Source: Anaerolineales bacterium
GTDB taxonomy: Bacteria; Chloroflexota; Anaerolineae; Anaerolineales; UBA4823
DNA length: 61,471 nucleotides
Direction of reading: 5' to 3'
Assembly: GCA_036507795.1 (NCBI GenBank)
Contig: DATCIL010000029.1
Location: 1-61,471 of the forward strand
A program made the position numbers and the translations under genes. This document shows positions 10,810 through 31,702 of the stretch, one piece after another. Under the pieces are notes generated by a model. It did no database searches, was not told the DNA's origin, and saw only the letters and a list, made by a program, of their open reading frames with translations. Position 1 is the first letter of the stretch. The number at the start of each line of letters is the position of its first letter.

Positions 10810-11856
10810 ATGAAACGATTGGCCATGCCGTTAGTGATCGCAATCGTTTTCCTCATCACGGTAGTCCCCTCATGGTTGGGCGTTTATAGCGGTTACTATC
10901 AATTTGTGCTAATGCTCATTGGCATCAACATCACCCTGACGGTCAGCCTGAACCTGATTAACGGATACATGGGAGAGTTTTCCGTCGGGCACGCGGCCTT
11001 CATGGGCGCGGGCGCTTACGTGGCGTCAATTATTAACGTATACCTGCTGGCTGATAGCAATTTCTTTGGCCAGGCAAGAATCGCACCCGGCTGGTCGATT
11101 CTGATCTTCCCCATTTCCTTGATCCTCGGTGGGATTGCAGCCAGTTTATTTAGCTTATTGGTTGCTTTTCCCTCCTTTCGAACCCGAGGTGATTACCTGG
11201 CTATTATCACCCTGGCGGTAAATTTTATCTTCAAGAGCGTGATCGAGAATATTGACAAGATCGGAGGACCGCGTGGGTTCATGGGGATGGGAGGGGTGGT
11301 CAAGGCCATGCAGGACGTCATTAATATCCCGTGGGTGATGATTTGGGTCTTCATCGTGATGGTCTTTTCGATTTATATTGTGCGAAATCTCGTGTCATCG
11401 ATCATGGGAAAAGGAATTGTCGCCATCCGCGACGACGAAATTGCGGCAGAATTAATGACCGTCAACACCCGGCGAATGAAGGTGATCGCATTTATGCTTG
11501 CCTGCGGACTGGCCGGCATGGCGGGGGGCCTGCATGCCCATGCGGTAAGTTTTATCAACCCCTCCAGCTACTTTATTATCCAATCTACCTTCATGTTGGT
11601 AATGGTTTATTTAGGAGGAATGGGATCTCTAAGCGGATCGGTCATCAGCGCGGTCCTTTTTACGATACTACTTGAACTGATGAAACCGTTGGGCCTCTAT
11701 CGATTCGTAGTGATCCCGGTGCTGTTCATCCTCCTGATGTTGCTCAGGCCAAGCGGATTAATGGGGAATCGAGAACTGTCCGATATCTTCCCGCCCTTAC
11801 GCAAGTTTTTTGGCACTGCCGAGGAAAGGATCTCCCATGTCCCTGCTTCAGATTGA
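10810..11856 (+). CDS. livM: Branched-chain amino-acid ABC transporter permease (LivM type)
   Basis: GYMGEFSVGHAAFMGAGAY block, multi-TM, second permease of the set. Confidence 0.85.
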   Translation: MKRLAMPLVIAIVFLITVVPSWLGVYSGYYQFVLMLIGINITLTVSLNLINGYMGEFSVGHAAFMGAGAYVASIINVYLLADSNFFGQARIAPGWSILIFPISLILGGIAASLFSLLVAFPSFRTRGDYLAIITLAVNFIFKSVIENIDKIGGPRGFMGMGGVVKAMQDVINIPWVMIWVFIVMVFSIYIVRNLVSSIMGKGIVAIRDDEIAAELMTVNTRRMKVIAFMLACGLAGMAGGLHAHAVSFINPSSYFIIQSTFMLVMVYLGGMGSLSGSVISAVLFTILLELMKPLGLYRFVVIPVLFILLMLLRPSGLMGNRELSDIFPPLRKFFGTAEERISHVPASD

Positions 11857-12604
11857 GAATCTAACTCTTTACTTTGGTGGTCTACGGGCGGTCGAAAACT
11901 TCAGCCTGGAGCTTCGGCAAGACGAAACGGTGGGCTTGATCGGACCGAACGGCGCCGGAAAATCGACTGTTTTCAACGTGGTTTGCGGTCTCTATAAACC
12001 CTCTCAGGGGACAATCAAATTCAACGGACATGATCTGGTGGGCCGACATCCGCATCAAATCACGTCCCTCGGGATCGGCAGAACCTTTCAAAACATTCGC
12101 TTGTGGAACGAGCTATCCGTCTTAGATAATCTGCGGATCGCCCATTTCTCTCAAATCAAATACGGACTGCTGGACGCCTTCTTTCTTACAAACAGGTTAA
12201 GAGTGGACGAAAGGGAGGTAACAGAAGAAGCGACCGAGCTGCTGGAGTTATTCAACTTGCAGCGTTTTTGGGAGGAAATTCCACGTAACCTGTCGTATGG
12301 CGTGCAGCGCCGGGTAGAAATCTGCCGGGCCCTGGTGATGAAGCCTCAGCTGTTGTTATTGGACGAACCGGCTGCCGGGATGAATCAGGGCGAGATTATC
12401 GAACTGATCGATCTGATTCTGTGGATCCGGAATAAATTTAATGTAACTGTCTGGATTATCGAGCACCAGATGCGCGTGATCATGGGCATTTGTGACCGAA
12501 TTAAGGTCATCGATTTCGGCAATACAATTGCGGAAGGCACTCCAGATGAGATCAGGAATAATCCAAGGGTTATCCAGGCCTATTTGGGCGAGGAGGTGCC
12601 CTGA
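11837..12604 (+). CDS. livG: ABC transporter ATP-binding protein (LivG type)
   Basis: Walker A GPNGAGKST, signature LSYGVQRRVEICRAL, Walker B LLLLDEPAAGM. ATG 11837 (MSLLQIENL) follows AGGAAAGGA. Confidence 0.9.
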   Translation: MSLLQIENLTLYFGGLRAVENFSLELRQDETVGLIGPNGAGKSTVFNVVCGLYKPSQGTIKFNGHDLVGRHPHQITSLGIGRTFQNIRLWNELSVLDNLRIAHFSQIKYGLLDAFFLTNRLRVDEREVTEEATELLELFNLQRFWEEIPRNLSYGVQRRVEICRALVMKPQLLLLDEPAAGMNQGEIIELIDLILWIRNKFNVTVWIIEHQMRVIMGICDRIKVIDFGNTIAEGTPDEIRNNPRVIQAYLGEEVP

Positions 12605-18624: not shown

Positions 18625-19472
18625 TGCGTGGTCATTGGTTTGTCCTGGCTGCGGCGCTGCTATGGGGTACCACCGGTACTGCCCAGGCATTCGCTCCAAC
18701 AGGCACGCAACCAGCCGCGGTAGGGGCAGTACGCCTGATTATCGGCAGCATGGTCTTATTGACATTCGCTCATTTCAGAGGAGTGCTGCATCGAGGAATA
18801 CCATGGCCGCTCGTTCCAACTGCGTTTGCCAGCATCAGCATAGCAGCCTACCAGTTATTCTTTTTTGCCGGCGTAGCCCGGACGGGGGTAGCGATCGGGA
18901 CAATTATCGCTATCGGCAGCGCACCCATTTTAGCGGGTCTTTTAGGATATCTATGGCGAAAAGAAAAGCCGCGCCAAAAGTGGGTCTGGGCAACTATGGT
19001 AGCCGTCACCGGATGTATATTAATTATGATTCCAAAGGGGGACGTTCAGATCGACCCGCTAGGTATCCTCTTGACCTTAGGCGCAGGCGCAGCTTACGCC
19101 ACTTATGCGGTTGCCAGTAAGGGCTTGTTGGATAGCCACCCGCCGGATGCTGTTGCAGCCGTCGTCTTCAGCTTAGGTGCAATTATTCTTTCGCCACTCT
19201 TGATAAAATCAAACCTGGCCTGGCTGGTCCAGCCCCGCGGCCTGGCTGTAGCGCTTCATCTGGGAGTTTTTGCCACGGCCGCTGCATATGTCTTGTTTTC
19301 CCGCGGACTGAGGTCTATCCCAGTTGCTTCCGCGGTGACATTATCCCTGGCGGAACCCGTAACTGCGGGCTTTTTGGGTCTCCTCTTGTTGGGTGAGCGG
19401 CTCACCCCGGCGATTTTAATCGGCATGGCTCTCGTACTAAGCGGCCTGGCGCTGCTCACCACTGGCCGTTAG
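18624..19472 (+). CDS. EamA/DMT-family transporter
   Basis: About ten hydrophobic helices in two repeated halves, with the LWGTTG N-terminal motif. TAATG overlap with the sucB stop. Confidence 0.8.
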   Translation: MRGHWFVLAAALLWGTTGTAQAFAPTGTQPAAVGAVRLIIGSMVLLTFAHFRGVLHRGIPWPLVPTAFASISIAAYQLFFFAGVARTGVAIGTIIAIGSAPILAGLLGYLWRKEKPRQKWVWATMVAVTGCILIMIPKGDVQIDPLGILLTLGAGAAYATYAVASKGLLDSHPPDAVAAVVFSLGAIILSPLLIKSNLAWLVQPRGLAVALHLGVFATAAAYVLFSRGLRSIPVASAVTLSLAEPVTAGFLGLLLLGERLTPAILIGMALVLSGLALLTTGR

Positions 19473-22400
19473 CTGAGCGTTTGCCGGATTGATCAATCTG
19501 TAAACCAGGATAATGGGATGGAGCGGCGCAGCACCGGTGCCATCTTCGATTTGCGATCGACAAGAGACGCCGGGAGCAGCGATAATCGCCCTTGGATTCT
19601 CCTTCAACGCTTTCCTTACCGCAGGAAAAAGTGCCTGTTCGCCGATCTGCATGGAAATCTCGTAATGCTCCGCCTCATATCCGAAGGCCCCCGCCATTCC
19701 GCAGCAACCCGATTGCACCACCTCGACTTCATAACCAACTGCCGTTAGCATTTGTACAGTGGCCGCTACGCCGGTTGGATAGCCGTCCGCCGCTGGCGGT
19801 TGGGTTTTTTGATAGCAGTGTCCATGGAGCAGAATTTTTTGTTGCTTTTCGGCTTGAGGTGAATTGGCTATGCGCACCGACCTTTTTAAATTGCCCTTAT
19901 CCGGGCGGACTACAAACTCGTCCAGCATGAAAGCCCGGGTAGCAAGCCGTTCAACTCGCTCATCCGCGGGGAGAAGATCCCGGTATTCATCTCGCAGGGT
20001 ATAAATTTCCGAAGGTTCTACGCCAATGACCGGCAGCTTGCCGCAAGGATCGGCCCGGTCGATCGCCTCAAGCACGCGAATTGCCTGCCTGCGAGCCGGG
20101 TCGATAAATCCCTTGGAAAGCAGCGTTCTTCCAGTTCCCACAACTGGTAAAACCTGGATGCTGCAGCCCCATTGCGTCAATATCTCCATCGCCGCCAGCG
20201 CTATCTCCGGCTGAAAATACTCGGTAAACGGGTCTGAGAGGAAAAGGCAGTCGACCTCACGATTTCCGGCATGCTGCTTTGAACCTTGCAGCTGAACACC
20301 ATTTAGTTTTCGTTTCGAAATTAAATCGTGTAGAGACCGGCGCTGCAAAGAAGGTAATTTTCTTTGATGAGCCAGACCGAACAACCGCTCCCCCAACCTG
20401 CCTGCCAGGTTTGACCTCAGGAGAGCATTTGCGAGAGGCGCAAACCGGCGTCCCCATCGACCAACAGGCTCTATGTATGAAAATAAATAGTCGCTGACCG
20501 ATCTCTTGTAATGTCTATGCGCAGTAGACCCGTAGTAATAATCTAGAAATTCGTACTTCAACTTGGCCATATCCACCGAGGACGGGCACTCCGCTTTACA
20601 GCCCTTGCACGCCAGACACAGGTCCAGGGCCGCGTACACTGTTTCCTCGGCACTTTCTTCATCCGGAAAACGACCGGAGATCATGGCACGCAGGAGGTTT
20701 GCCCGTCCCCGCGTGCTGTGCATTTCATCGGCGGTCACCTGGTAGGACGGGCACATGACCCCTCCGGCTTTACGGCACACGCCCGCGCCATTGCACATCT
20801 CAATGGCTCCATCCAAACCGGCCTGCCTCGAAAAATCCAGGTTAGATACCCACATATGAGCTGCGTAATCGGGCCCGTAGCGGAGATTCTCGGTCATCGG
20901 TGGGGCATCCGGCAGCTTACCTGGATTTAGAATGCCTTGTGGATCCGCAGCCTGTTTTAGATCTCTAAAAGCAGACACGATTTCTGGCCCATATGCAGGC
21001 AGGATCCACTGCGAGCGCACCAGTCCGTCCCCGTGCTCTCCGGTGACAGCGCCGCCCAGCTCAATGCAGAGAGCAGTAGATTCTTGAGCGATGGCGAGCA
21101 TTTCTTCAACACCCTGGCGTCTTTTCAGATTCAGCAGCGGCCGGATATGCAGGCAACCAGCGGAGGCGTGGCCGTAGAAATCCCCCTGAGTACCATGCGA
21201 TTGCAGGATGCCCTCGATTTCCCTCACAAACTCGCCCAGGCGCTCAACCGGAACAGACATATCCTCGATAAATGGCACCGGTTTCGGTTCCCCCGGGCGT
21301 GAGAGCAAGATCCCCAGGCCCATCTTGCGAACTCCCCAGACGCGCATCTGGTCGGCATACGATTCCGCAATCAAGACATCCTTCCCCAGCCTTTTGGCAC
21401 GCTGCAGCAGATTCGAAAGGTCATCACCGGCAAACTCCACGACAAGAATTGCTGCAGGATCAATCCCGGAGACGCTTATGGGATCCAGAAAGGAAATTTG
21501 GTGGGCATAGGCCGGGACTGAACGAGCCAGCTGAATTAGGCTGCGGGAGATCAGTTCAATGGCAGAAGGGTGGCTTTGCAGCAGCTCGGGCACTGCATCG
21601 CAGGCTGCCGCAAGGCTTGGATATGCCAGCACGCCCAAGACGGTCTTCTTGGGAATTGAAACCAGGCGGACGGTTGCCTGGCGGATGAAGGCCAAAGTTC
21701 CCTCCGATCCAGCAATCAGAGGCGCCAGGTTTAAGGAACCGGATGGCACCGGCGGATATCCGGAATTGGCTCCGTCGCCCAGGAACCATTTAGCAGGAGA
21801 GGCCGGCGACCAGGGAAGCAGGTAGTTGAGGTTATAACCGGAGGCACGCCGCCAGGTCCGGGGCCAATTCTGACGTATGGCGGGCGCATATTGATCACGA
21901 ATGTGTAAGGCGCTTCGATAGAGATTGGATTCGAGGGAATGTGTTGCGTGTTTCGTATTTCTTGAATCTCGGGTAGGAGGCTTTAGGCCGGCGCGGCGGC
22001 GGGCTTCCGGGAGCGATATCGTTTCAAAAGTTGCATGAGAGCCGTCGGCAAGGATGACGTCAACGGCATGCAAGTGATCGGCGGTCATACCGTATTCGAT
22101 CGAGTGAGCACCGCTGGCGTTGCTGGCAATGCTGCCACCCATGGTGGCGCGTTCAGCGGAAGCCGGATCCGGGCCGAACTGCAGGCCGAATTGGGCAGCC
22201 TGCTGATTTAAAGTGGACATAATTACTCCCGGCTGGACCTTCGCTGTTTTCTCCTGCGGATTAATCTCAATAATATGATCCAGGTAGCGGGAGCAATCTA
22301 TGACCAGGGCATTTCCTACTGCCTGCCCAGCCAAACTGGAGCCGGCGCCGCGGGCCAAGAGAGGAACCTGGTGATCAGCTGCAATCTCAACAACGGCCGA

Positions 22401-22580
22401 TAATTCATCCAATGTTCGTGGGAAAACGACGCCAAGGGGTTCGATCTGGTAGAGAGAAGCATCCGTGCTGTACAGCAGTCGCGACGCCAGATCAAAAGCT
22501 ACCTCACCAGTTATCGCTTTTTCCAGGTCGGCAATCAGATCCGGAATCGGTGATTTTTGTCGAAGATCCATATTATTCAC
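19437..22580 (-). CDS. Fused FAD-linked oxidase / 4Fe-4S dicluster / CCG-domain oxidoreductase (YdiJ-like, GlcD-GlcF fusion type)
   Basis: N-terminal FAD_binding_4 block (ARGAGSSLAGQAVG), ferredoxin-type CLACKGCKAECP and CNGAGVCRK..MCPSY, and C-terminal CCG motifs (HGHCYQK, CCGMAGAFG). At 1047 aa it is similar in size to E. coli YdiJ. Confidence 0.8.
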   Translation of the reverse strand: MNNMDLRQKSPIPDLIADLEKAITGEVAFDLASRLLYSTDASLYQIEPLGVVFPRTLDELSAVVEIAADHQVPLLARGAGSSLAGQAVGNALVIDCSRYLDHIIEINPQEKTAKVQPGVIMSTLNQQAAQFGLQFGPDPASAERATMGGSIASNASGAHSIEYGMTADHLHAVDVILADGSHATFETISLPEARRRAGLKPPTRDSRNTKHATHSLESNLYRSALHIRDQYAPAIRQNWPRTWRRASGYNLNYLLPWSPASPAKWFLGDGANSGYPPVPSGSLNLAPLIAGSEGTLAFIRQATVRLVSIPKKTVLGVLAYPSLAAACDAVPELLQSHPSAIELISRSLIQLARSVPAYAHQISFLDPISVSGIDPAAILVVEFAGDDLSNLLQRAKRLGKDVLIAESYADQMRVWGVRKMGLGILLSRPGEPKPVPFIEDMSVPVERLGEFVREIEGILQSHGTQGDFYGHASAGCLHIRPLLNLKRRQGVEEMLAIAQESTALCIELGGAVTGEHGDGLVRSQWILPAYGPEIVSAFRDLKQAADPQGILNPGKLPDAPPMTENLRYGPDYAAHMWVSNLDFSRQAGLDGAIEMCNGAGVCRKAGGVMCPSYQVTADEMHSTRGRANLLRAMISGRFPDEESAEETVYAALDLCLACKGCKAECPSSVDMAKLKYEFLDYYYGSTAHRHYKRSVSDYLFSYIEPVGRWGRRFAPLANALLRSNLAGRLGERLFGLAHQRKLPSLQRRSLHDLISKRKLNGVQLQGSKQHAGNREVDCLFLSDPFTEYFQPEIALAAMEILTQWGCSIQVLPVVGTGRTLLSKGFIDPARRQAIRVLEAIDRADPCGKLPVIGVEPSEIYTLRDEYRDLLPADERVERLATRAFMLDEFVVRPDKGNLKRSVRIANSPQAEKQQKILLHGHCYQKTQPPAADGYPTGVAATVQMLTAVGYEVEVVQSGCCGMAGAFGYEAEHYEISMQIGEQALFPAVRKALKENPRAIIAAPGVSCRSQIEDGTGAAPLHPIILVYRLINPANAQLTASGEQRQAA

Positions 22581-26135: not shown

Positions 26136-27314
26136 ATGACAAGTTTGCGCGAACTCATCAGCCGCTGGTTTTCTAAGGTGGAGCCCTTACCGGCGGGGAT
26201 CTATAGCTTTAAGGCACCCAGGGATGCATCCAAACAATACCGTCTGCATCTGCGCCTGGAGCCAGATGGGCGAGGCCTGCTCTTGATCAATGCTGCTACA
26301 GTGCTACATCTCAACCCGACTGCAGCGGAATACGCGTACCACCTGGTGCAAAAGGCTCCCAGGGAAGAGGCTGCCCGGCAAGTCTCCAGGCGCTACCGAG
26401 TCAGCTATGAAATAGCCATGCAAGATTACGTGGAATTCAGCGAATTCGTGGAATCTCTGTTGGAGGTACCTGATTTAGAACCAATCAGCTCCTTCGAAAC
26501 AGGTCGACAACAACCTTACTCGGGGCGGATTTCGGCCCCCTACCGTCTGGATTGCGCCCTGACATACCGCCAGTTGGAGAGCTGTGCCGGCTCGCCTGGT
26601 TCGGTTTTTATAGAGCTAACGACCGCGGAGTGGAAATCAATCCTGGACAAGGCCTGGGCGGCCGGTATCCCTCACGTTATCTTGACCGGTGGAGAGCCCA
26701 CCCTGCGCCCAGACCTGGTAGAGCTGCTGGATCACGCCGAGCAGCTGGGCATGGTTACCGGGCTGCTCACCGATGGCCAGCGCCTGGGCGACTCGGCATA
26801 CCTGGACGCGCTACTCCAGGCTGGATTGGACCACACAGTGATTGTGCTAGAACCACAAAGAGACGAGAGCTGGGAAACTTTAATAAGTCTTACCTATTGG
26901 AAAGAAGCTTTAGAGGCTGACCTGCATATCGTCGCTCACCTGACAATCACCCCCGATAATGCCCCACAGGCTGGCGCGCTGCTGGAGGGGCTGGCGGGGA
27001 CCGGCGTCCACGCCGTTTCACTGAGCGCCAGCAATCCTTCCCTTGCCAGCGTCCTAAGCGCTGCCCGCGAGCACGCGGCTTTGCTCGGATTGACTCTTGT
27101 CTGGGACTTGCCGGTGCCTTATACAGATTTGAATCCGATCGCAATAGAAACCGCAGATGAAAGTCCGGCTCCGGGAGCCGGGCGAGCCTGGCTCTACGTT
27201 CAGCCAAATGGAGATGTTCTCCCCGCCCGGGGGCGGGATCGCGTCCTGGGCAATATTCTGAGGGATCCCTGGGAGGCAATTTGGGTTCAAACCAATAGAC
27301 CTCCGCACCTATAA
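26136..27314 (+). CDS. Degenerate radical SAM/SPASM paralog lacking all Fe-S cysteines (pseudo-rSAM) with an N-terminal PqqD-like domain
   Basis: Collinear with ORF 28391-30013. Compare HLRLEPDGRGLLLINAATVLHLNPTAAEYAYHLV, APYRLDCALTY, GIPHVILTGGEPTLRPDL and QPNGDVLP..LGNILRDPWEAIW. At the CxxxCxxC position it reads RQLESCAGSPG, and the SPASM cysteines are absent. Confidence 0.75.
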   Translation: MTSLRELISRWFSKVEPLPAGIYSFKAPRDASKQYRLHLRLEPDGRGLLLINAATVLHLNPTAAEYAYHLVQKAPREEAARQVSRRYRVSYEIAMQDYVEFSEFVESLLEVPDLEPISSFETGRQQPYSGRISAPYRLDCALTYRQLESCAGSPGSVFIELTTAEWKSILDKAWAAGIPHVILTGGEPTLRPDLVELLDHAEQLGMVTGLLTDGQRLGDSAYLDALLQAGLDHTVIVLEPQRDESWETLISLTYWKEALEADLHIVAHLTITPDNAPQAGALLEGLAGTGVHAVSLSASNPSLASVLSAAREHAALLGLTLVWDLPVPYTDLNPIAIETADESPAPGAGRAWLYVQPNGDVLPARGRDRVLGNILRDPWEAIWVQTNRPPHL

Positions 27315-27331
27315 TAGGAACTCCTTCGGAT

Positions 27332-28348
27332 TCATTTATTCCACGCCTGAGCATAAATGGCGCTAAAAAAATCGGCGGACAAGGGATCTTCTCCTCCGAT
27401 CATCAGGCGTTCTCCATCGATCGCGCGAACTTGAAGCGCGCCTGGGGGAACCGAACCGGCCAATTCGCTCTGAAGACATGCTACCCAGCTTTCCAGCCCG
27501 ATATCCACTTTGGGTAACCATTTCGGCTGATAATTCCGATACAGCCGGGCATGCTCTTCATCCAATACGAGCCACTCAAGGTGATGCTCCAGCAAGCGCA
27601 GGTCCGCGTTATTCGCAGTAATGCGAGCGACGTCATGACGAGCTCGTCCCAGGTGCTTCTGATAATAATCTCGGGTTGCATCTAAGTCATGACCGCCGAC
27701 CCTGCGAGCGGTATGGAGGACCAGGGCGCGCAGTGGTGCTGTGAAGTTTATTATGTTTAGCGGTTGGCCGTCACTCGCCTCCAGCAACTCAAGGAATGGT
27801 TCTTCGTAGGGTTGGAGAATGACTGCATGCTGCTGAGCTGCCTGGCGGCGAAGGGCAGCGCGGGTCTGAACATCGGCGGCAACACCGCGCGTGCGGTAAT
27901 CCGGATTTACGGTCATCACCAGATGCGATTGTCCAGCAGGTTGGAGAATACCCTTCTTTACCAGGCCAACCATGACGGCGGCCAGGACAGTATTGAGAGG
28001 CATTGCCAGGAGGCTGGCAGCTTCAGGTGCGGTTAACCCGCGCTTGATACCGCCGCCCTCAACGACAGCAACTGCAGGCTGATAAGCCGGTTTCTTCCTG
28101 CGAGCTGGCCTAAATGCAAATATGGATAAGACCAGCAGGGGGATAAAGGCTAAAAGTTGCGCTAAAGGACTGATCCAAAAGAGCATCGTGAGCCCGAGGC
28201 TGAGCAGGGCAAATACAACCCGACCGGTTCCTCGGCTCTTTCGAAAGAAAAAAAACCCGAAGAGGGCGAGAAATGAAAAGCCCGCCAAGAGGCGAACTTC
28301 GGGGTGCCGCATGAACCAAATGAAAAGATTCGTCAATGTATTCGTCAT
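27332..28348 (-). CDS. Hypothetical membrane protein (3 N-terminal TM helices plus a soluble domain of about 240 aa), no family recognised
   Basis: 338-aa ORF 42 nt downstream of the radical SAM gene on the same strand. Hydrophobic segments LLAGFSFLALFGFFFF, VVFALLSLGLTMLFWI and LLAFIPLLVLSIFAF. Confidence 0.65.
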   Translation of the reverse strand: MTNTLTNLFIWFMRHPEVRLLAGFSFLALFGFFFFRKSRGTGRVVFALLSLGLTMLFWISPLAQLLAFIPLLVLSIFAFRPARRKKPAYQPAVAVVEGGGIKRGLTAPEAASLLAMPLNTVLAAVMVGLVKKGILQPAGQSHLVMTVNPDYRTRGVAADVQTRAALRRQAAQQHAVILQPYEEPFLELLEASDGQPLNIINFTAPLRALVLHTARRVGGHDLDATRDYYQKHLGRARHDVARITANNADLRLLEHHLEWLVLDEEHARLYRNYQPKWLPKVDIGLESWVACLQSELAGSVPPGALQVRAIDGERLMIGGEDPLSADFFSAIYAQAWNK

Positions 28349-28390
28349 GCAGAATCGCCCACCGGCACAGGATAGTTGGCCAGCTCCGGC

Positions 28391-30013
28391 TTACTTTTGA
28401 GTATTCAACCTTGGGCTTGGGAATGAATCCAGGTCTTCCAGGGAAATTAGACCGGTCATATTGCCTGTCGATCGCCGGTCGGTCCGAACCATTCCTTCGG
28501 TGGGGATAAAACCAGCGGTGTGAAGCGGGTTGAGGTGATGATTGGTCCCGCACGCTCCACTGCATCCTGAGCATCCGCCGCCCGCACCTTCTGCAATACG
28601 ATTTCCTTCCCGGGCTTCCCGCTCGATACGACATCCACCCCCGCACAGGGGCAGGTCGGGGCAATCCCAACACTTCTCAGGGAGCCCGGCCCATTGCGGA
28701 TCCAGCTCACGATCGCGGAAGCTGCGGAAAAGCTCTCCGTTCCAAATCTGGTCCCAGGGATCCCGCAAAAGGTTCCCGGCCGACACATAGTAGGATTGGC
28801 ACGGCAGCACATCGCCATTTGGCTCGATACATAACGAATATTCGCCAGCGTTGCAGCGCTTGGCACCGATTTCTAACTCAACGGGGTTCATGCGGCAGTA
28901 TTCGGTAGGCGTGTACCACAGAAAACGCATGCCGAGTTCGGCAGCTCGATCCCTGACGCGAACCAGCAGTGGAGGCATATCTTCCTCTGGGATAGCGTTG
29001 GGATGAGCAAAACCGCCGCCAGAGTAGATCATCCCATTCATGGCAAAAGTGCGCACACCCAGTTCGTGCAGGAATTCCACGATCGCCTCAGCATGGTTCA
29101 TGTTGGTACGCATCAACGTGGTGTTGGTGATGGTGTAGACTCCGCTCTCTAAGGCATTCAGAATGCCTCGCACGGTCTGGTGGAAAGAGGCTGCGCCCAT
29201 CATGGCATCATGAACGGTAGGTATGTGGGAGCCAAGGGTAACCTGCACGTGGTTGAGTCCAGCTTCAGCCAGGGTTTGCATATAGGGTTTGTGTTGGATG
29301 CGGCGCCCGTTCGTATTCAGTCCCACAATCGGACCGAGGCGGTCTGCGTAGGCGATTATCTCAGGAAGGTCGGGATGGAGCGTGGCCTCCCCACCGGTAA
29401 GGATGATATGCGGAACGCCTACCTCAACAAGTTTATCAATGACCTGCTTCCATCCTTCCAGGGGCAAGGAGGGCATCTCCAAACGATCCGGCTCGTTGTA
29501 GCAATGCGGGCATTCATTATTGCAACCATATGTCAGGGCGATATCGACCTTATAGGGCGCATGGATTCGGGTGCTGAACATCGGCGCCTGGCCCAAGCTT
29601 TCTATTTCGCAGGTTGGGCAGCTCTCGCCGGGTGAAGAGAATCGCTCCACCATCGTGTAGATTTGGTCGATCTCCCGATCTAAATGGTCAGGTTCGGCGA
29701 TCTCGTAGTGCGCCAGCAGGCGTACTCGAGCTTGAGAACGAGGCACGCCATCCAAGGCTAACTTGGCCATCCAGGCCGCGGTGGGATTAAGGTGAATCAC
29801 ATCGGTGACATCCACGAACAGGACGCCGGCCCCATTTCGCTCTATCCGTAGATGGTTTCGAAATTTAATATCAAGGGAAGAAAAGCGGTAAGTGTAGAGG
29901 CCCGGCGCGGGAGGAGCTTGTTCAGGAAAGGCAGAAAATAGATTGCGGGAATCCTGCCATAAGCCATTCCATACCCGGCGAGCGAGGGCGGGCGAGTGTA
30001 ATATATCGGTCAT
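28391..30013 (-). CDS. Radical SAM/SPASM enzyme with N-terminal PqqD-like (RRE) domain and Cys/Gly-rich C-terminal tail
   Basis: CNNECPHC (nt 29501-29524), ILTGGEATLHPDL, and SPASM cysteines PCQSY...CWDCPDLPLCGGGCRIE. N-terminal HLRIERNGAGVLFVDVTDVIHLNPTAAWMAKLALDG. The tail contains GGGCSGCSGACG. Confidence 0.85.
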   Translation of the reverse strand: MTDILHSPALARRVWNGLWQDSRNLFSAFPEQAPPAPGLYTYRFSSLDIKFRNHLRIERNGAGVLFVDVTDVIHLNPTAAWMAKLALDGVPRSQARVRLLAHYEIAEPDHLDREIDQIYTMVERFSSPGESCPTCEIESLGQAPMFSTRIHAPYKVDIALTYGCNNECPHCYNEPDRLEMPSLPLEGWKQVIDKLVEVGVPHIILTGGEATLHPDLPEIIAYADRLGPIVGLNTNGRRIQHKPYMQTLAEAGLNHVQVTLGSHIPTVHDAMMGAASFHQTVRGILNALESGVYTITNTTLMRTNMNHAEAIVEFLHELGVRTFAMNGMIYSGGGFAHPNAIPEEDMPPLLVRVRDRAAELGMRFLWYTPTEYCRMNPVELEIGAKRCNAGEYSLCIEPNGDVLPCQSYYVSAGNLLRDPWDQIWNGELFRSFRDRELDPQWAGLPEKCWDCPDLPLCGGGCRIEREAREGNRIAEGAGGGCSGCSGACGTNHHLNPLHTAGFIPTEGMVRTDRRSTGNMTGLISLEDLDSFPSPRLNTQK

Positions 30014-30110
30014 CGAGTCACCTATAAGAGAATACGGTCCGCTTGGTAAAAAGTTGGTTAAGTATATCTAGATCCTGAAAGATATGCAAGCAAGAGCAAT
30101 CCGAAACCAC

Positions 30111-30347
30111 TTAAAGGGCCCAGGCCAACATCAAGCCGAATATTGCCAGAACGACTCCAAGATGTAAAAAAAGGTGGCTATTGCCCACCCAACCAGCCCC
30201 CGGGAAAAATTGCAGCACGCCATTGATAACCACAAACAGAATGCCGATCAAGGGCAAAAGACCTTTGCGGTGGGCGAAGAAATCTGAGAGCTTGTCCAGG
30301 ATTTTATTGATGCTTGGCTGCATGCGGACCCCAGCGATCAGGATCAT
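30111..30347 (-). CDS. Small two-TM membrane protein, no family recognised
   Basis: 70-78 aa (alternative start MQPSINK at 30323). Amphipathic N-terminus followed by LLPLIGILFVVINGVLQFF and LHLGVVLAIFGLMLAWAL. Sits between hflX and the radical SAM gene. Confidence 0.5.
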   Translation of the reverse strand: MILIAGVRMQPSINKILDKLSDFFAHRKGLLPLIGILFVVINGVLQFFPGAGWVGNSHLFLHLGVVLAIFGLMLAWAL

Positions 30348-30376: not shown

Positions 30377-31702
30377 TCATGTTTCACGGTTCAGATACGG
30401 CTTAAAACGTCCCAGTAACCGGCCAGGAATTCGACCTTGTATCTTTACTCCGCCGTTGCCGTGCTCAATTTTATCAACTTGACCCTGTTCATGAAAAAGG
30501 GCAATCAAACCGCCTTCGTCATAGGGTAAACGAACTGCGATAGAAGCGAAGTTCTCATACAAGTTTTCGCTCACAAGGTCCAGTAGGTCTGAGACACCCT
30601 CACCGGTGAGCGCGGAGATAGCCACGGCATTTGGGAAATTGGCGAGCACCTGGCGGGCGCGATCCGGATCACCTAATTTGTCAATCTTGTTTAGCGCGAC
30701 CAGAATCGGAACGTGATCGGCTTCAATTTCCACCAAGGTCTCGTGGACAGCCCGCGCCTGGGCGTGAGCGCTCGGATGGGTAATATCGACGACGTGCAGA
30801 AGCAGATCGGCCTCAGCAATCTCCTCTAATGTGGCGCGAAATGCTGCAATCAGGGTAGTGGGAAGCTTCTGGATAAAACCGACCGTGTCCGTGAAAAGCG
30901 CCAGATCGGCGTCTGGCAGTTCCACCCGGCGTGTCGTGGGATCCAGGGTTGCGAATAACTGGTCGGCAACATAAACATCGGCGTCTGCGAGGCGGTTCAA
31001 CAGGGTTGATTTCCCCGCATTGGTATATCCAACGAGGGCGACAACTGGGATGCGAGAGCGCTTACGGCGCGCACGATATTGCTTGCGATGGGTGCGCACT
31101 CTCTCAAGTTGATCTTTCAAATTGCTAATGCGCCGGCGAATGTCGCGGCGGTCGACCTCCAATTGGGTCTCACCGGGGCCACGCAAGCCGACCCCGCCAA
31201 CGCTGCCTGCCCGGCCGCCACCACCCCCTGCCTGCCGGGCAAGGTGGGTCCAGGCCCGCGTCAGTCGGGGCAAACGATATTCGTATTGCGCCAGTTCAAC
31301 CTGCAAAGCCCCCTCGCTGGTATTGGCGTGCTGGGCAAAAATATCAAGGATCAGCGCCGTCCGGTCAAGTATGCGAACGTTATCGCCAAAAGAACGCTCC
31401 AATTCACGCAGATGGCGTGGGGAGAGCTCCTCATCAAAAAGAACAACATCCGCCTGGGTCTCTTCGACCAGCGCTTTTACCTCATCCACTTTGCCAGGTC
31501 CAATAAACGTCTTTGGATTAGGGCTGTCGAATCTTTGGGTAGCCTCGCCAACCACGTCCAGGCCAGCGGTTTCTGAAAGAAGGGTCAATTCTGTTAGAGA
31601 ATCTTCTAAAGAAAGCAAATCGTCCTCTCTGCGCCATTCAACGCCAACCAAAAACGCGCGCTCGCGAGGACGAACGGTAGGTTCCGGGGTTTTAGGTGAC
31701 AT
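30377..31702 (-). CDS. hflX: GTPase HflX
   Basis: HflX N-domain followed by a G domain with G1 GYTNAGKSTLLN and G3 DTVGF. Confidence 0.9.
   Translation of the reverse strand: MSPKTPEPTVRPRERAFLVGVEWRREDDLLSLEDSLTELTLLSETAGLDVVGEATQRFDSPNPKTFIGPGKVDEVKALVEETQADVVLFDEELSPRHLRELERSFGDNVRILDRTALILDIFAQHANTSEGALQVELAQYEYRLPRLTRAWTHLARQAGGGGGRAGSVGGVGLRGPGETQLEVDRRDIRRRISNLKDQLERVRTHRKQYRARRKRSRIPVVALVGYTNAGKSTLLNRLADADVYVADQLFATLDPTTRRVELPDADLALFTDTVGFIQKLPTTLIAAFRATLEEIAEADLLLHVVDITHPSAHAQARAVHETLVEIEADHVPILVALNKIDKLGDPDRARQVLANFPNAVAISALTGEGVSDLLDLVSENLYENFASIAVRLPYDEGGLIALFHEQGQVDKIEHGNGGVKIQGRIPGRLLGRFKPYLNRET

Follow-up and report, generated by a model that had tools for sequence, protein, structure and literature searches.

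A radical SAM/SPASM enzyme, its cluster-less paralog and a membrane protein with an invariant Cys-Ala tail as candidate substrate

The joining of a RiPP recognition element (RRE; RiPP, a peptide made by the ribosome and modified after translation) to a radical S-adenosylmethionine (rSAM) enzyme of the SPASM type is the signature architecture of RiPP maturases. The RRE is a peptide-binding domain, and most of what is known of RRE-bearing rSAM/SPASM enzymes concerns the making of small peptides for secretion. The enzyme QhpD installs intra-protein thioethers. Its action on QhpC, a crosslinked protein subunit, has been discussed, and a model of it based on CteB, which forms sactionines, was docked with crosslinked QhpC (PMC7876137). 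The rSAM/SPASM enzyme SbtM oxidises the Cys of a Gly-Cys motif to a thiooxazole (PMC9204691), and the TIGR04222 membrane proteins, which have Cys-rich C-terminal tails, are proposed substrates of oxidative enzymes that depend on multinuclear non-heme iron (MNIOs; PMC12452194). Here, we describe a locus on a 61,471-nt contig of an Anaerolineales bacterium of the phylum Chloroflexota (DATCIL010000029.1, assembly GCA_036507795.1), analyzed as a whole and called the window below. It encodes an RRE-bearing rSAM/SPASM enzyme (A), a paralog of A that has lost its cluster ligands (A') and a membrane protein (B-short), which are three genes of a gene set found in several phyla. We propose, with a probability of roughly 55%, that A acts with the help of A' to modify the Cys tail that B-long, a longer relative of B-short, has in the cytoplasm, and that the window holds a derived three-gene subset of this system. 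The general kind of system is known, that of an RRE-rSAM/SPASM enzyme on a Cys-rich ribosomal substrate; what is new here is the tail of a membrane protein as candidate substrate, the dedicated pseudo-enzyme partner and a motif that is invariant across phyla. Neither the Cys-Ala tail string nor this gene set is described in the literature searched.

The complete set comprises five genes, encoding C, A, A', B-long and a methyltransferase. C is a protein of ~113 aa (117-126 aa in loci L001/L002) with two transmembrane (TM) helices, a zinc ribbon and an EEAPKW end. The methyltransferase, mostly encoded directly downstream of B-long, is a SAM enzyme of class I (Methyltransf_11, 4e-16). B, C and the A/A' subfamily fall under no Pfam or NCBIfam model. 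To take a census, we scanned species-representative genomes with an alignment of B, and mapped the best 80 of 300 loci by local open reading frame (ORF) calling and BLAST. These loci belong to Chloroflexota (Anaerolineae, Thermoflexales, Ardenticatenaceae, Caldilineales, Promineifilaceae), Planctomycetota, Sumerlaeota, Zixibacteria and a deltaproteobacterium. Of the 69 loci with at least 1.5 kb of upstream sequence, 65 have A' as the gene directly upstream of B-long. Where the upstream sequence reaches at least 6 kb (52 loci), 41 loci have A and 39 have C, and the methyltransferase is found in 56 of the 75 loci with downstream sequence. The same-strand cassette C-A-A'-B-long(-methyltransferase) occurs in Chloroflexota, Planctomycetota, Sumerlaeota, Zixibacteria and deltaproteobacterial metagenome-assembled genomes (MAGs), and also in independently found loci. 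Other arrangements exist: the order C-B-long-A-A'-methyltransferase was seen in L097, L100, L106 and L110, retrieved by a metagenome scan with the A' of the window (~50% identity), and L001 and L002 have a split form, with A-B-short plus C-B-long-A'. A linkage that survives such shuffling of gene order across phyla argues for a functional unit. The canonical cassettes are also tight (estimated median C-to-A gap of 27 nt; A-to-A' gap of at most 120 nt at 31 of 50 loci), so that no precursor gene fits between their genes. The estimated A'-to-B gap is unreliable, as the best alignment falls in the B core, and ORF coordinates were used instead.

The most constrained part of B-long is found at its end. 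The protein, of ~490-590 aa among the homologs found with B-short and of ~560-630 aa in the cassettes, is made of a signal peptide, an ectodomain, one or more TM segments, a core common to B-short and B-long that includes the invariant EGGGIKRGLT.PEA block, a Gly/Ser linker and the tail; in L001/L002, for example, a protein of 562 aa has a C-terminal half homologous to B-short and ends in ...SSCACACAGCACACAGGGR. The tail has the pattern (CA)2-3-G-(CA)4-GGGR (ORF-end pattern CACAGCACACACAGGGR). Of 87 tails, 59 have the sequence CACACAGCACACACAGGGR and 19 the sequence GGCACAGCACACACAGGGR, with variation at the first positions only. The last 17 residues are identical in 84 tails that are encoded by 84 distinct DNA sequences, and all the differences between these are synonymous, which shows selection on the peptide and not on a DNA repeat. 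With 17 residues identical across at least five phyla, the tail is among the most strictly conserved short peptides and makes a ready, testable candidate substrate. It is present in 86 of 95 B-long ORFs; of the other nine, five are cut by contig ends, one is masked and three have another C-terminus, probably following frameshifts or gene splitting. It was also found in 112 of 137 new library representatives, and an exhaustive profile search returned 985 B-family clusters among 1.84 billion representatives. Based on hydropathy and the positive-inside rule, the ectodomain is predicted to be outside and the B core and tail to be cytoplasmic, hence reachable by a cytoplasmic Fe-S/rSAM enzyme.

A' and B-long are also found as one protein. 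Two in-frame A'::B-long fusions (L050 ORF 8180-11167 (+) and P0255; 995 and 948 aa), which are 41% identical, come from Planctomycetaceae-type MAGs, and in these A' is cut before the SPASM end and joined to the signal-anchor of B. Fusions in proteins so diverged point to a physical partnership between A' and B. Variants of B-long itself were noted as well. Two tandem B-long genes follow A' in L010, L023, L024, L026, L032, L035, L046, L048, L068, L075 and L083, usually both with the Cys-Ala tail, and A and A' are 1-3 kb apart in these loci. The proteins P0279, P0295, P0297, P0301 and P0307 are variants of ~770-840 aa with a duplicated ectodomain.

In the window, an initial annotation made from the sequence alone had delimited four ORFs, which we recovered at the same coordinates (ORF listing). 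Three of them encode A', B-short and A, with the following features (positions in the window, strand in brackets):

26136..27314 (+): A', cluster-less paralog of A, 392 aa, RRE-like domain and TIM-barrel core kept; collinear with A (E 1e-61, 410 columns at 32% identity)
26166..26489 (+): RRE-like N-terminal domain of A', residues ~11-118, part of profile A4 (see below)
27332..28348 (-): B-short, membrane protein of 338 aa, a form of B without tail and ectodomain, 42 nt downstream of A
28031..28060 (-): EGGGIKRGLT motif of the B family, columns E97-T106 invariant or nearly so
28115..28303 (-): three TM helices of B-short, residues ~16-78 (AlphaFold2 (AF2) helices 16-38, 43-59, 61-78)
28391..30013 (-): A, rSAM/SPASM enzyme with N-terminal RRE, 540 aa (Pfam, motifs, Foldseek)
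28394..28630 (-): C-terminal extension of A that bears the motifs GGGCSGCSGACGT and TAGFIP, conserved in alignment A3 and predicted disordered
28631..28855 (-): SPASM auxiliary-cluster region of A, residues 387-461 (Pfam SPASM 1e-12)
29501..29524 (-): CX3CX2C SAM-cluster motif of A, C164/C168/C171 (CNNECPHC), invariant or nearly so in alignment A3
29609..29620 (-): CPTC motif (C132, C135) in the linker between RRE and core of A, nearly invariant in A3
29636..29902 (-): RRE (PqqD-like) domain of A, residues ~38-126 (AF2 topology and family profile)

The initial annotation read these genes as an RRE-bearing rSAM/SPASM enzyme with a cofactor-less paralog, and Pfam, motif and profile evidence all agree with it. 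It called the system an orphan, which does not stand: a system of five genes is present in several phyla, of which these three form a derived subset, and the Cys-Ala tail of B-long is the candidate substrate. Its broader wording, a peptide- or protein-modifying module with a non-obvious substrate, we judge fair.

A carries the marks of the rSAM/SPASM superfamily, that is the SAM-cluster motif, the GGE motif, the TIM-barrel core and a C-terminal SPASM domain, the domain whose pattern of 7-8 Cys serves two auxiliary clusters (Pfam Radical_SAM 8e-25, residues 160-315; SPASM, residues 387-452). The canonical CxxxCxxC, the SAM-binding block ILTGGEATL (TGGE) and the SPASM-type cysteines (C387, C405, C448, C451, C457, C461) noticed at first are all present. 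Across the family, CX3CX2C is found in 55/55 A proteins and CxxCx5Cx3C in 54/55, and the N-terminal CxxC is found in 46/55 A proteins and in zero A' proteins. Orthologs at 60-80% identity are abundant in Anaerolineae. The AF2 model of A has a predicted local distance difference test (pLDDT) score of 64 overall. Its top Foldseek ranks are SkfB, BlsE, SuiB (alignments spanning 458-479 columns), HydE, CteB, the anaerobic sulfatase-maturing enzyme (anSME), a mid-rank match only, and PqqE. Dozens of NCBIfam rSAM/SPASM models match A, in the generic core only and all below their curated cutoffs: 109 bits for AhbD (TIGR04545, cutoff 500), 106.8 for the second-best match GeoRSP_rSAM (TIGR04303, 400), 103.6 for PqqE (TIGR02109, 381), 93.5 for NirJ (TIGR04051, 515) and 90.6 for MftC (TIGR03962, 265). 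With every score this far under its cutoff, A belongs to no named subfamily, and the family with a known role outside RiPP biosynthesis that could have undone the initial annotation did not turn up. The C-terminal extension of A (~79 aa, three spaced cysteines, pLDDT below 40) is lineage-specific, being found in a subset of Chloroflexota. The latter includes the canonical cassettes of L009, L012 and L016, and we therefore rejected the idea that the Cys tail shifted from B onto A in the clade with B-short.

The N-terminal region of A had been described as PqqD-type. For the single window sequences, Pfam PqqD remains below threshold (E 0.095 for A and 0.0069 for A'), but the description does hold at the level of the family. 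We built a profile (A4) of 38 aligned N-terminal domains, drawn from 127 domains of A and A' in related loci. Its only significant match among PDB sequences is TfuB1, a lasso-peptide RRE (6jx3_B, 1.8e-5), and 28 of the 38 aligned domains match Pfam PqqD (best 7e-6). In the AF2 model, residues 38-126 of A form four beta strands followed by three helices, with a pLDDT of 73-92 over this N-terminal domain. The RRE reading is thus supported for both paralogs. Of the marks of an RRE-dependent RiPP maturase, A has the PqqD-like RRE and lacks the adjacent short precursor gene.

A' retains the rSAM core (Pfam 7e-9) and has lost the SAM-cluster triad, the CX3CX2C of A being replaced by YRQLESCAGSPG. 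The window A' is truncated: it ends before the SPASM cysteines, of which it has none, and its whole sequence contains just 2 Cys. Among canonical A' proteins, the triad is missing in 72/73 cases and the SPASM CxxCx5Cx3C is kept in 65/73; truncated ones without any cluster motif are those of the window, L001, L002 and L008. Orthologs of the window A' have 52-58% identity in L001, L002 and L008, and 86% in L088.

B-short has no Pfam or NCBIfam match, in line with the first remark that it could be placed in no family, yet it can be placed as the form without tail and ectodomain of the family that holds the candidate substrate. A search with it gave 178 homologs, every one annotated as hypothetical, of both the short (tail-less) and the long form. 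The AF2 model (pLDDT 93) shows three TM helices and a basic linker in which the invariant motif lies, together with a helical bundle, a beta hairpin and an element resembling a winged helix, and Foldseek found no PDB match for this fold (best E 3.4). Hydropathy confirms the TM helices, with a basic stretch (K+R = 5) after the last one. The EGGGIKRGLT motif occurs once in the six-frame translation of the window, and the Cys-Ala tail is not encoded anywhere in it. Among the loci examined, B-short is confined to the Anaerolineaceae clade of the window and always directly follows A (L001-L003, L007, L008, L087, L088). The metagenome scan with the window A' recovered the same organism (L087, 99-100% identity) and the 86% relative with the same arrangement, and synteny with L003, L007 and L008 is limited to A, B-short and A'.

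The surroundings of the three genes in the window add few elements:

30111..30347 (-): hydrophobic ORF of 78 aa (70 aa from an internal Met), between hflX and A
30377-31702: hflX, directly beside the locus

The initial annotation expected its four genes to co-occur in related genomes. This is true for the enzyme, the paralog and the 338-aa protein, which stay together, each of them intact, in relatives with an A' at 52-86% identity to that of the window, and is not true for the 78-aa ORF. The latter is predicted by gene callers in other samples of the same species and has no Pfam or NCBIfam match, nor a homolog in any related locus examined. Because it has no homolog outside its own species, we do not count it as a member of the system, nor as a precursor; it may encode a small membrane protein particular to this species, or be no gene. 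Two genes were said to converge on the 338-aa gene; only that of the paralog does, as the rSAM gene is co-directional with it at a distance of 42 nt. The flanking genes pckA and hflX are housekeeping genes as proposed (Pfam PEPCK_ATP and HflX domains) and, like the 78-aa ORF, are not part of the system. Outside the species itself, pckA is adjacent only in the 86% relative, and the 562-aa gene upstream of A' in L001/L002 is not PckA. As for hflX, it lies 6-8 kb from B-long in five Anaerolineae loci (L017, L034, L036, L045, L077), a nearness that is probably residual lineage synteny and not a sign of function. We found no Rfam match near the locus at E up to 0.1, and scans for promoters and terminators were uninformative. 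Elsewhere in the window, the ORF at 19437-22580 (-) encodes 1047 aa that, by eye, resemble a fusion of an FAD-linked oxidase with a C-terminal part rich in Cys and of Fe-S type (GlpC/HdrD-like).

Some other genes accompany the system in its relatives. A 237-aa protein is encoded between A and A' in L032 (5438-6151 (+)) and weakly resembles the activation domain of the B12-dependent methionine synthase (Pfam Met_synt_B12, 4e-5, below cutoff); homologs of this ORF family are found in 11 loci in all. Upstream of A, L001 and L002 share a sigma factor of the extracytoplasmic function (ECF) type, a 255-aa protein next to it, a UbiA prenyltransferase and a DUF1684 protein, which is probably local synteny of two related Anaerolineales genomes. 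In NCBIfam, the L049 methyltransferase (11192-11959 (+)) scores best with the family DVU_1556 (62 bits against a cutoff of 155), the zinc-ribbon protein (L001 14547-14900 (-)) matches DVU_1557 weakly, and A matches TrsS. DVU_1556 and DVU_1557 are named after locus tags, presumably of neighbouring Desulfovibrio genes, and these matches might reflect a distantly related system of rSAM enzyme, methyltransferase and CxxC protein. We dropped this lead, as the matches are weak and no function for DVU_1556, DVU_1557 or TrsS is given in the literature searched.

We favour modification of the B-long tail because both paralogs have an RRE, there is no room for a precursor gene, A' is found fused to B, the tail is invariant and there is precedent for such chemistry. 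In the proposed pathway, A' would act as a non-catalytic partner, bound to the cytoplasmic domain of B or to the segment preceding the tail, and would hand the flexible, Gly/Ser-linked tail to A. The enzyme would modify the tail cysteines using 5'-deoxyadenosyl radical chemistry and two auxiliary clusters. Candidate products are thioether cross-links, like those of sactisynthases, ranthipeptide synthases and QhpD, or thiooxazoles, like those of SbtM, and a further change may come from the methyltransferase. In the lineage of the window, A would be paired with B-short instead, next to an A' further truncated by the loss of all cluster motifs. B-short would then most likely be a membrane anchor or a regulator of A/A', and a tail-bearing substrate, if the organism still has one, would be encoded beyond the 61-kb window. 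A bolder version of this proposal, of which we are rather doubtful, is that the (Cys-Ala)n tail becomes a new protein-borne structure, perhaps a thioether ladder or consecutive thiooxazoles, with a part in metal binding or electron transfer, with the pseudo-enzyme as a required subunit that presents the substrate and with B-short having replaced the substrate beside the enzyme in the window lineage.

Several observations weigh against modification of the tail. A is missing within 10 kb at 11 of 52 B-long loci and, the census loci having been chosen by homology to B, the counts gauge the link from B to A' better than the reverse. B-long, C and the methyltransferase are all missing from the 61-kb window, and none of them is near A/A' in L003, L007, L008 and L088. 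B-short has no conserved cysteine, and the rSAM model is of low confidence (pLDDT 64). The proposed substrate may be absent from the window's lineage, with A acting on something else. Furthermore, the C-x-C repeat resembles a metallothionein-type metal site, so that the invariance of the tail is by itself no proof of modification. The tail could accordingly be an unmodified metal- or Fe-S-binding element, metallothionein-like or redox-sensing, of a membrane sensor, to which A and A' are linked without modifying it, for example by building or delivering a cluster or cofactor borne by the tail, or by acting on a lipid or small molecule that B senses. C-x-C repeats are classic ligands of thiolate clusters, the winged-helix-like cytoplasmic domain and the ectodomain of B are what a signalling protein might have, C is a zinc-ribbon protein, and most canonical A' proteins, with their SPASM motif, may still hold a cluster. 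We nevertheless consider this explanation unlikely, since peptide-binding RRE domains are found in both A and A', the closest structural relatives of A are peptide-modifying enzymes, and the invariant residues that are not ligands (Ala, Gly and the terminal GGGR) exceed what metal ligation usually needs.

A somewhat smaller likelihood goes to a repurposing in the lineage of the window, where A would act on its own Cys/Gly-rich extension (GGGCSGCSGACGT) or on a protein recruited through B-short. This would suit the lack of the other three genes near the locus in the window and its four relatives, the conserved, disordered extension with its spaced cysteines, the loss of the SPASM motif from A' as well in this clade, and the restriction of B-short to it. 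However, L001 and L002 hold B-short and a truncated A' together with B-long and C at one locus, the extension is also found in canonical cassettes with the tail protein, and B-long could simply lie outside the 61 kb. A classical RiPP cluster with an unannotated short precursor gene is what the RRE and rSAM/SPASM signature would suggest, and L003 does have a called 44-aa ORF just upstream of A. Yet this ORF is Cys-free and was set aside on that ground, the 78-aa ORF of the window lacks homologs outside its species, and the intergenic gaps of the window, of 97, 42 and 17 nt (ORF listing), are too small for a precursor gene, as the initial annotation had also concluded, while the genes of canonical cassettes overlap or lie close together. 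Apart from the B-long tail, the cassettes have no conserved Cys-rich element, and A, at 60-80% identity throughout a class, is conserved to a degree unusual for the maturase of a natural product; we regard this possibility as very improbable. Even less is to be expected from A being a diverged enzyme of cofactor biosynthesis or sulfatase maturation, although the AhbD/NirJ, PqqE, MftC and anSME types give the top NCBIfam and PDB sequence matches. This idea is largely refuted by scores three to five times below the curated cutoffs in the generic rSAM/SPASM core only, by the lack of pqq, mft, ahb/nir and sulfatase genes among the neighbours listed at the loci inspected by Pfam annotation, and by the conserved partners being A', B, C and the methyltransferase. 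As regards anSME in particular, whose substrates carry C/S-x-P/A-x-R, the tail CACACAGCACACACAGGGR has neither CxPxR nor CxAxR, and there is no sulfatase among the conserved neighbours.

If A does modify the B-long tail, the machinery of RRE and rSAM/SPASM enzyme that makes small peptides elsewhere appears dedicated here to a conserved membrane protein and its tail in the cytoplasm, and to work with an inactive paralog as obligatory companion. This would be a new pathway of protein modification, or of protein-derived cofactor formation, in the poorly studied Anaerolineae, Planctomycetota and Sumerlaeota, and A and A' would be a rare pair of enzyme and pseudo-enzyme among rSAM proteins.

The closest described systems share different parts of this picture. 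The RRE-dependent thioether maturases (AlbA/SkfB/CteB and the ranthipeptide/SCIFF enzymes) have in common with A the CX3CX2C motif, a full SPASM domain and an N-terminal PqqD-like RRE. Their substrates have a Cys-rich C-terminal region, as B-long does, and SkfB, SuiB and CteB are among the top Foldseek matches of A. However, they act on a short secreted peptide and not on the tail of a membrane protein, and they have no counterpart to the obligatory cluster-less paralog, the zinc-ribbon membrane protein and the methyltransferase. They also differ by the housekeeping-level conservation of the system described here and by its "core peptide", invariant across phyla, and A reaches the cutoff of no NCBIfam maturase model. 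QhpD and QhpC offer a precedent of an rSAM enzyme working on the cysteines of a protein subunit, outside RiPPs; QhpC is a small soluble subunit with Cys-Asp/Glu links, whereas the tail of B, a membrane protein, is made of Cys, Ala and Gly plus the terminal GGGR. SbtM, of the GeoRSP systems, which form thio(seleno)oxazole, is an rSAM/SPASM enzyme as well, and the B tail has Gly-Cys and Ala-Cys steps, but the score of A is far under the GeoRSP cutoff, there is no selenocysteine peptide and the partners are others. The haloarchaeal pseudo-SAM/SPASM family TIGR04347 has lost the SAM-cluster cysteines like A', and its model is among the matches of A and A', at 47-94 bits against a cutoff of 525 and in other lineages and gene contexts. 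Finally, the TIGR04222 proteins resemble B-long in being polytopic membrane proteins with a low-complexity C-terminus, rich in Gly, Ser and Cys, thought to be modified by an adjacent enzyme (PMC12452194). We rejected membership of B in this family, as only 2 of 56 B proteins match its model, weakly, over the B core (E 0.049 and 0.0032) and under the 43-bit cutoff, and the window B-short does not match at all. The partner of TIGR04222 is an MNIO and that of B-long an rSAM/SPASM enzyme; the TIGR04222 tails are variable, of low complexity and periplasmic (PMC12452194), whereas the B tail is an exact motif, predicted to be cytoplasmic. If the proposed modification occurs, the system of A, A' and B-long would be a parallel to the proposed modification of Cys-rich membrane-protein tails by MNIOs.

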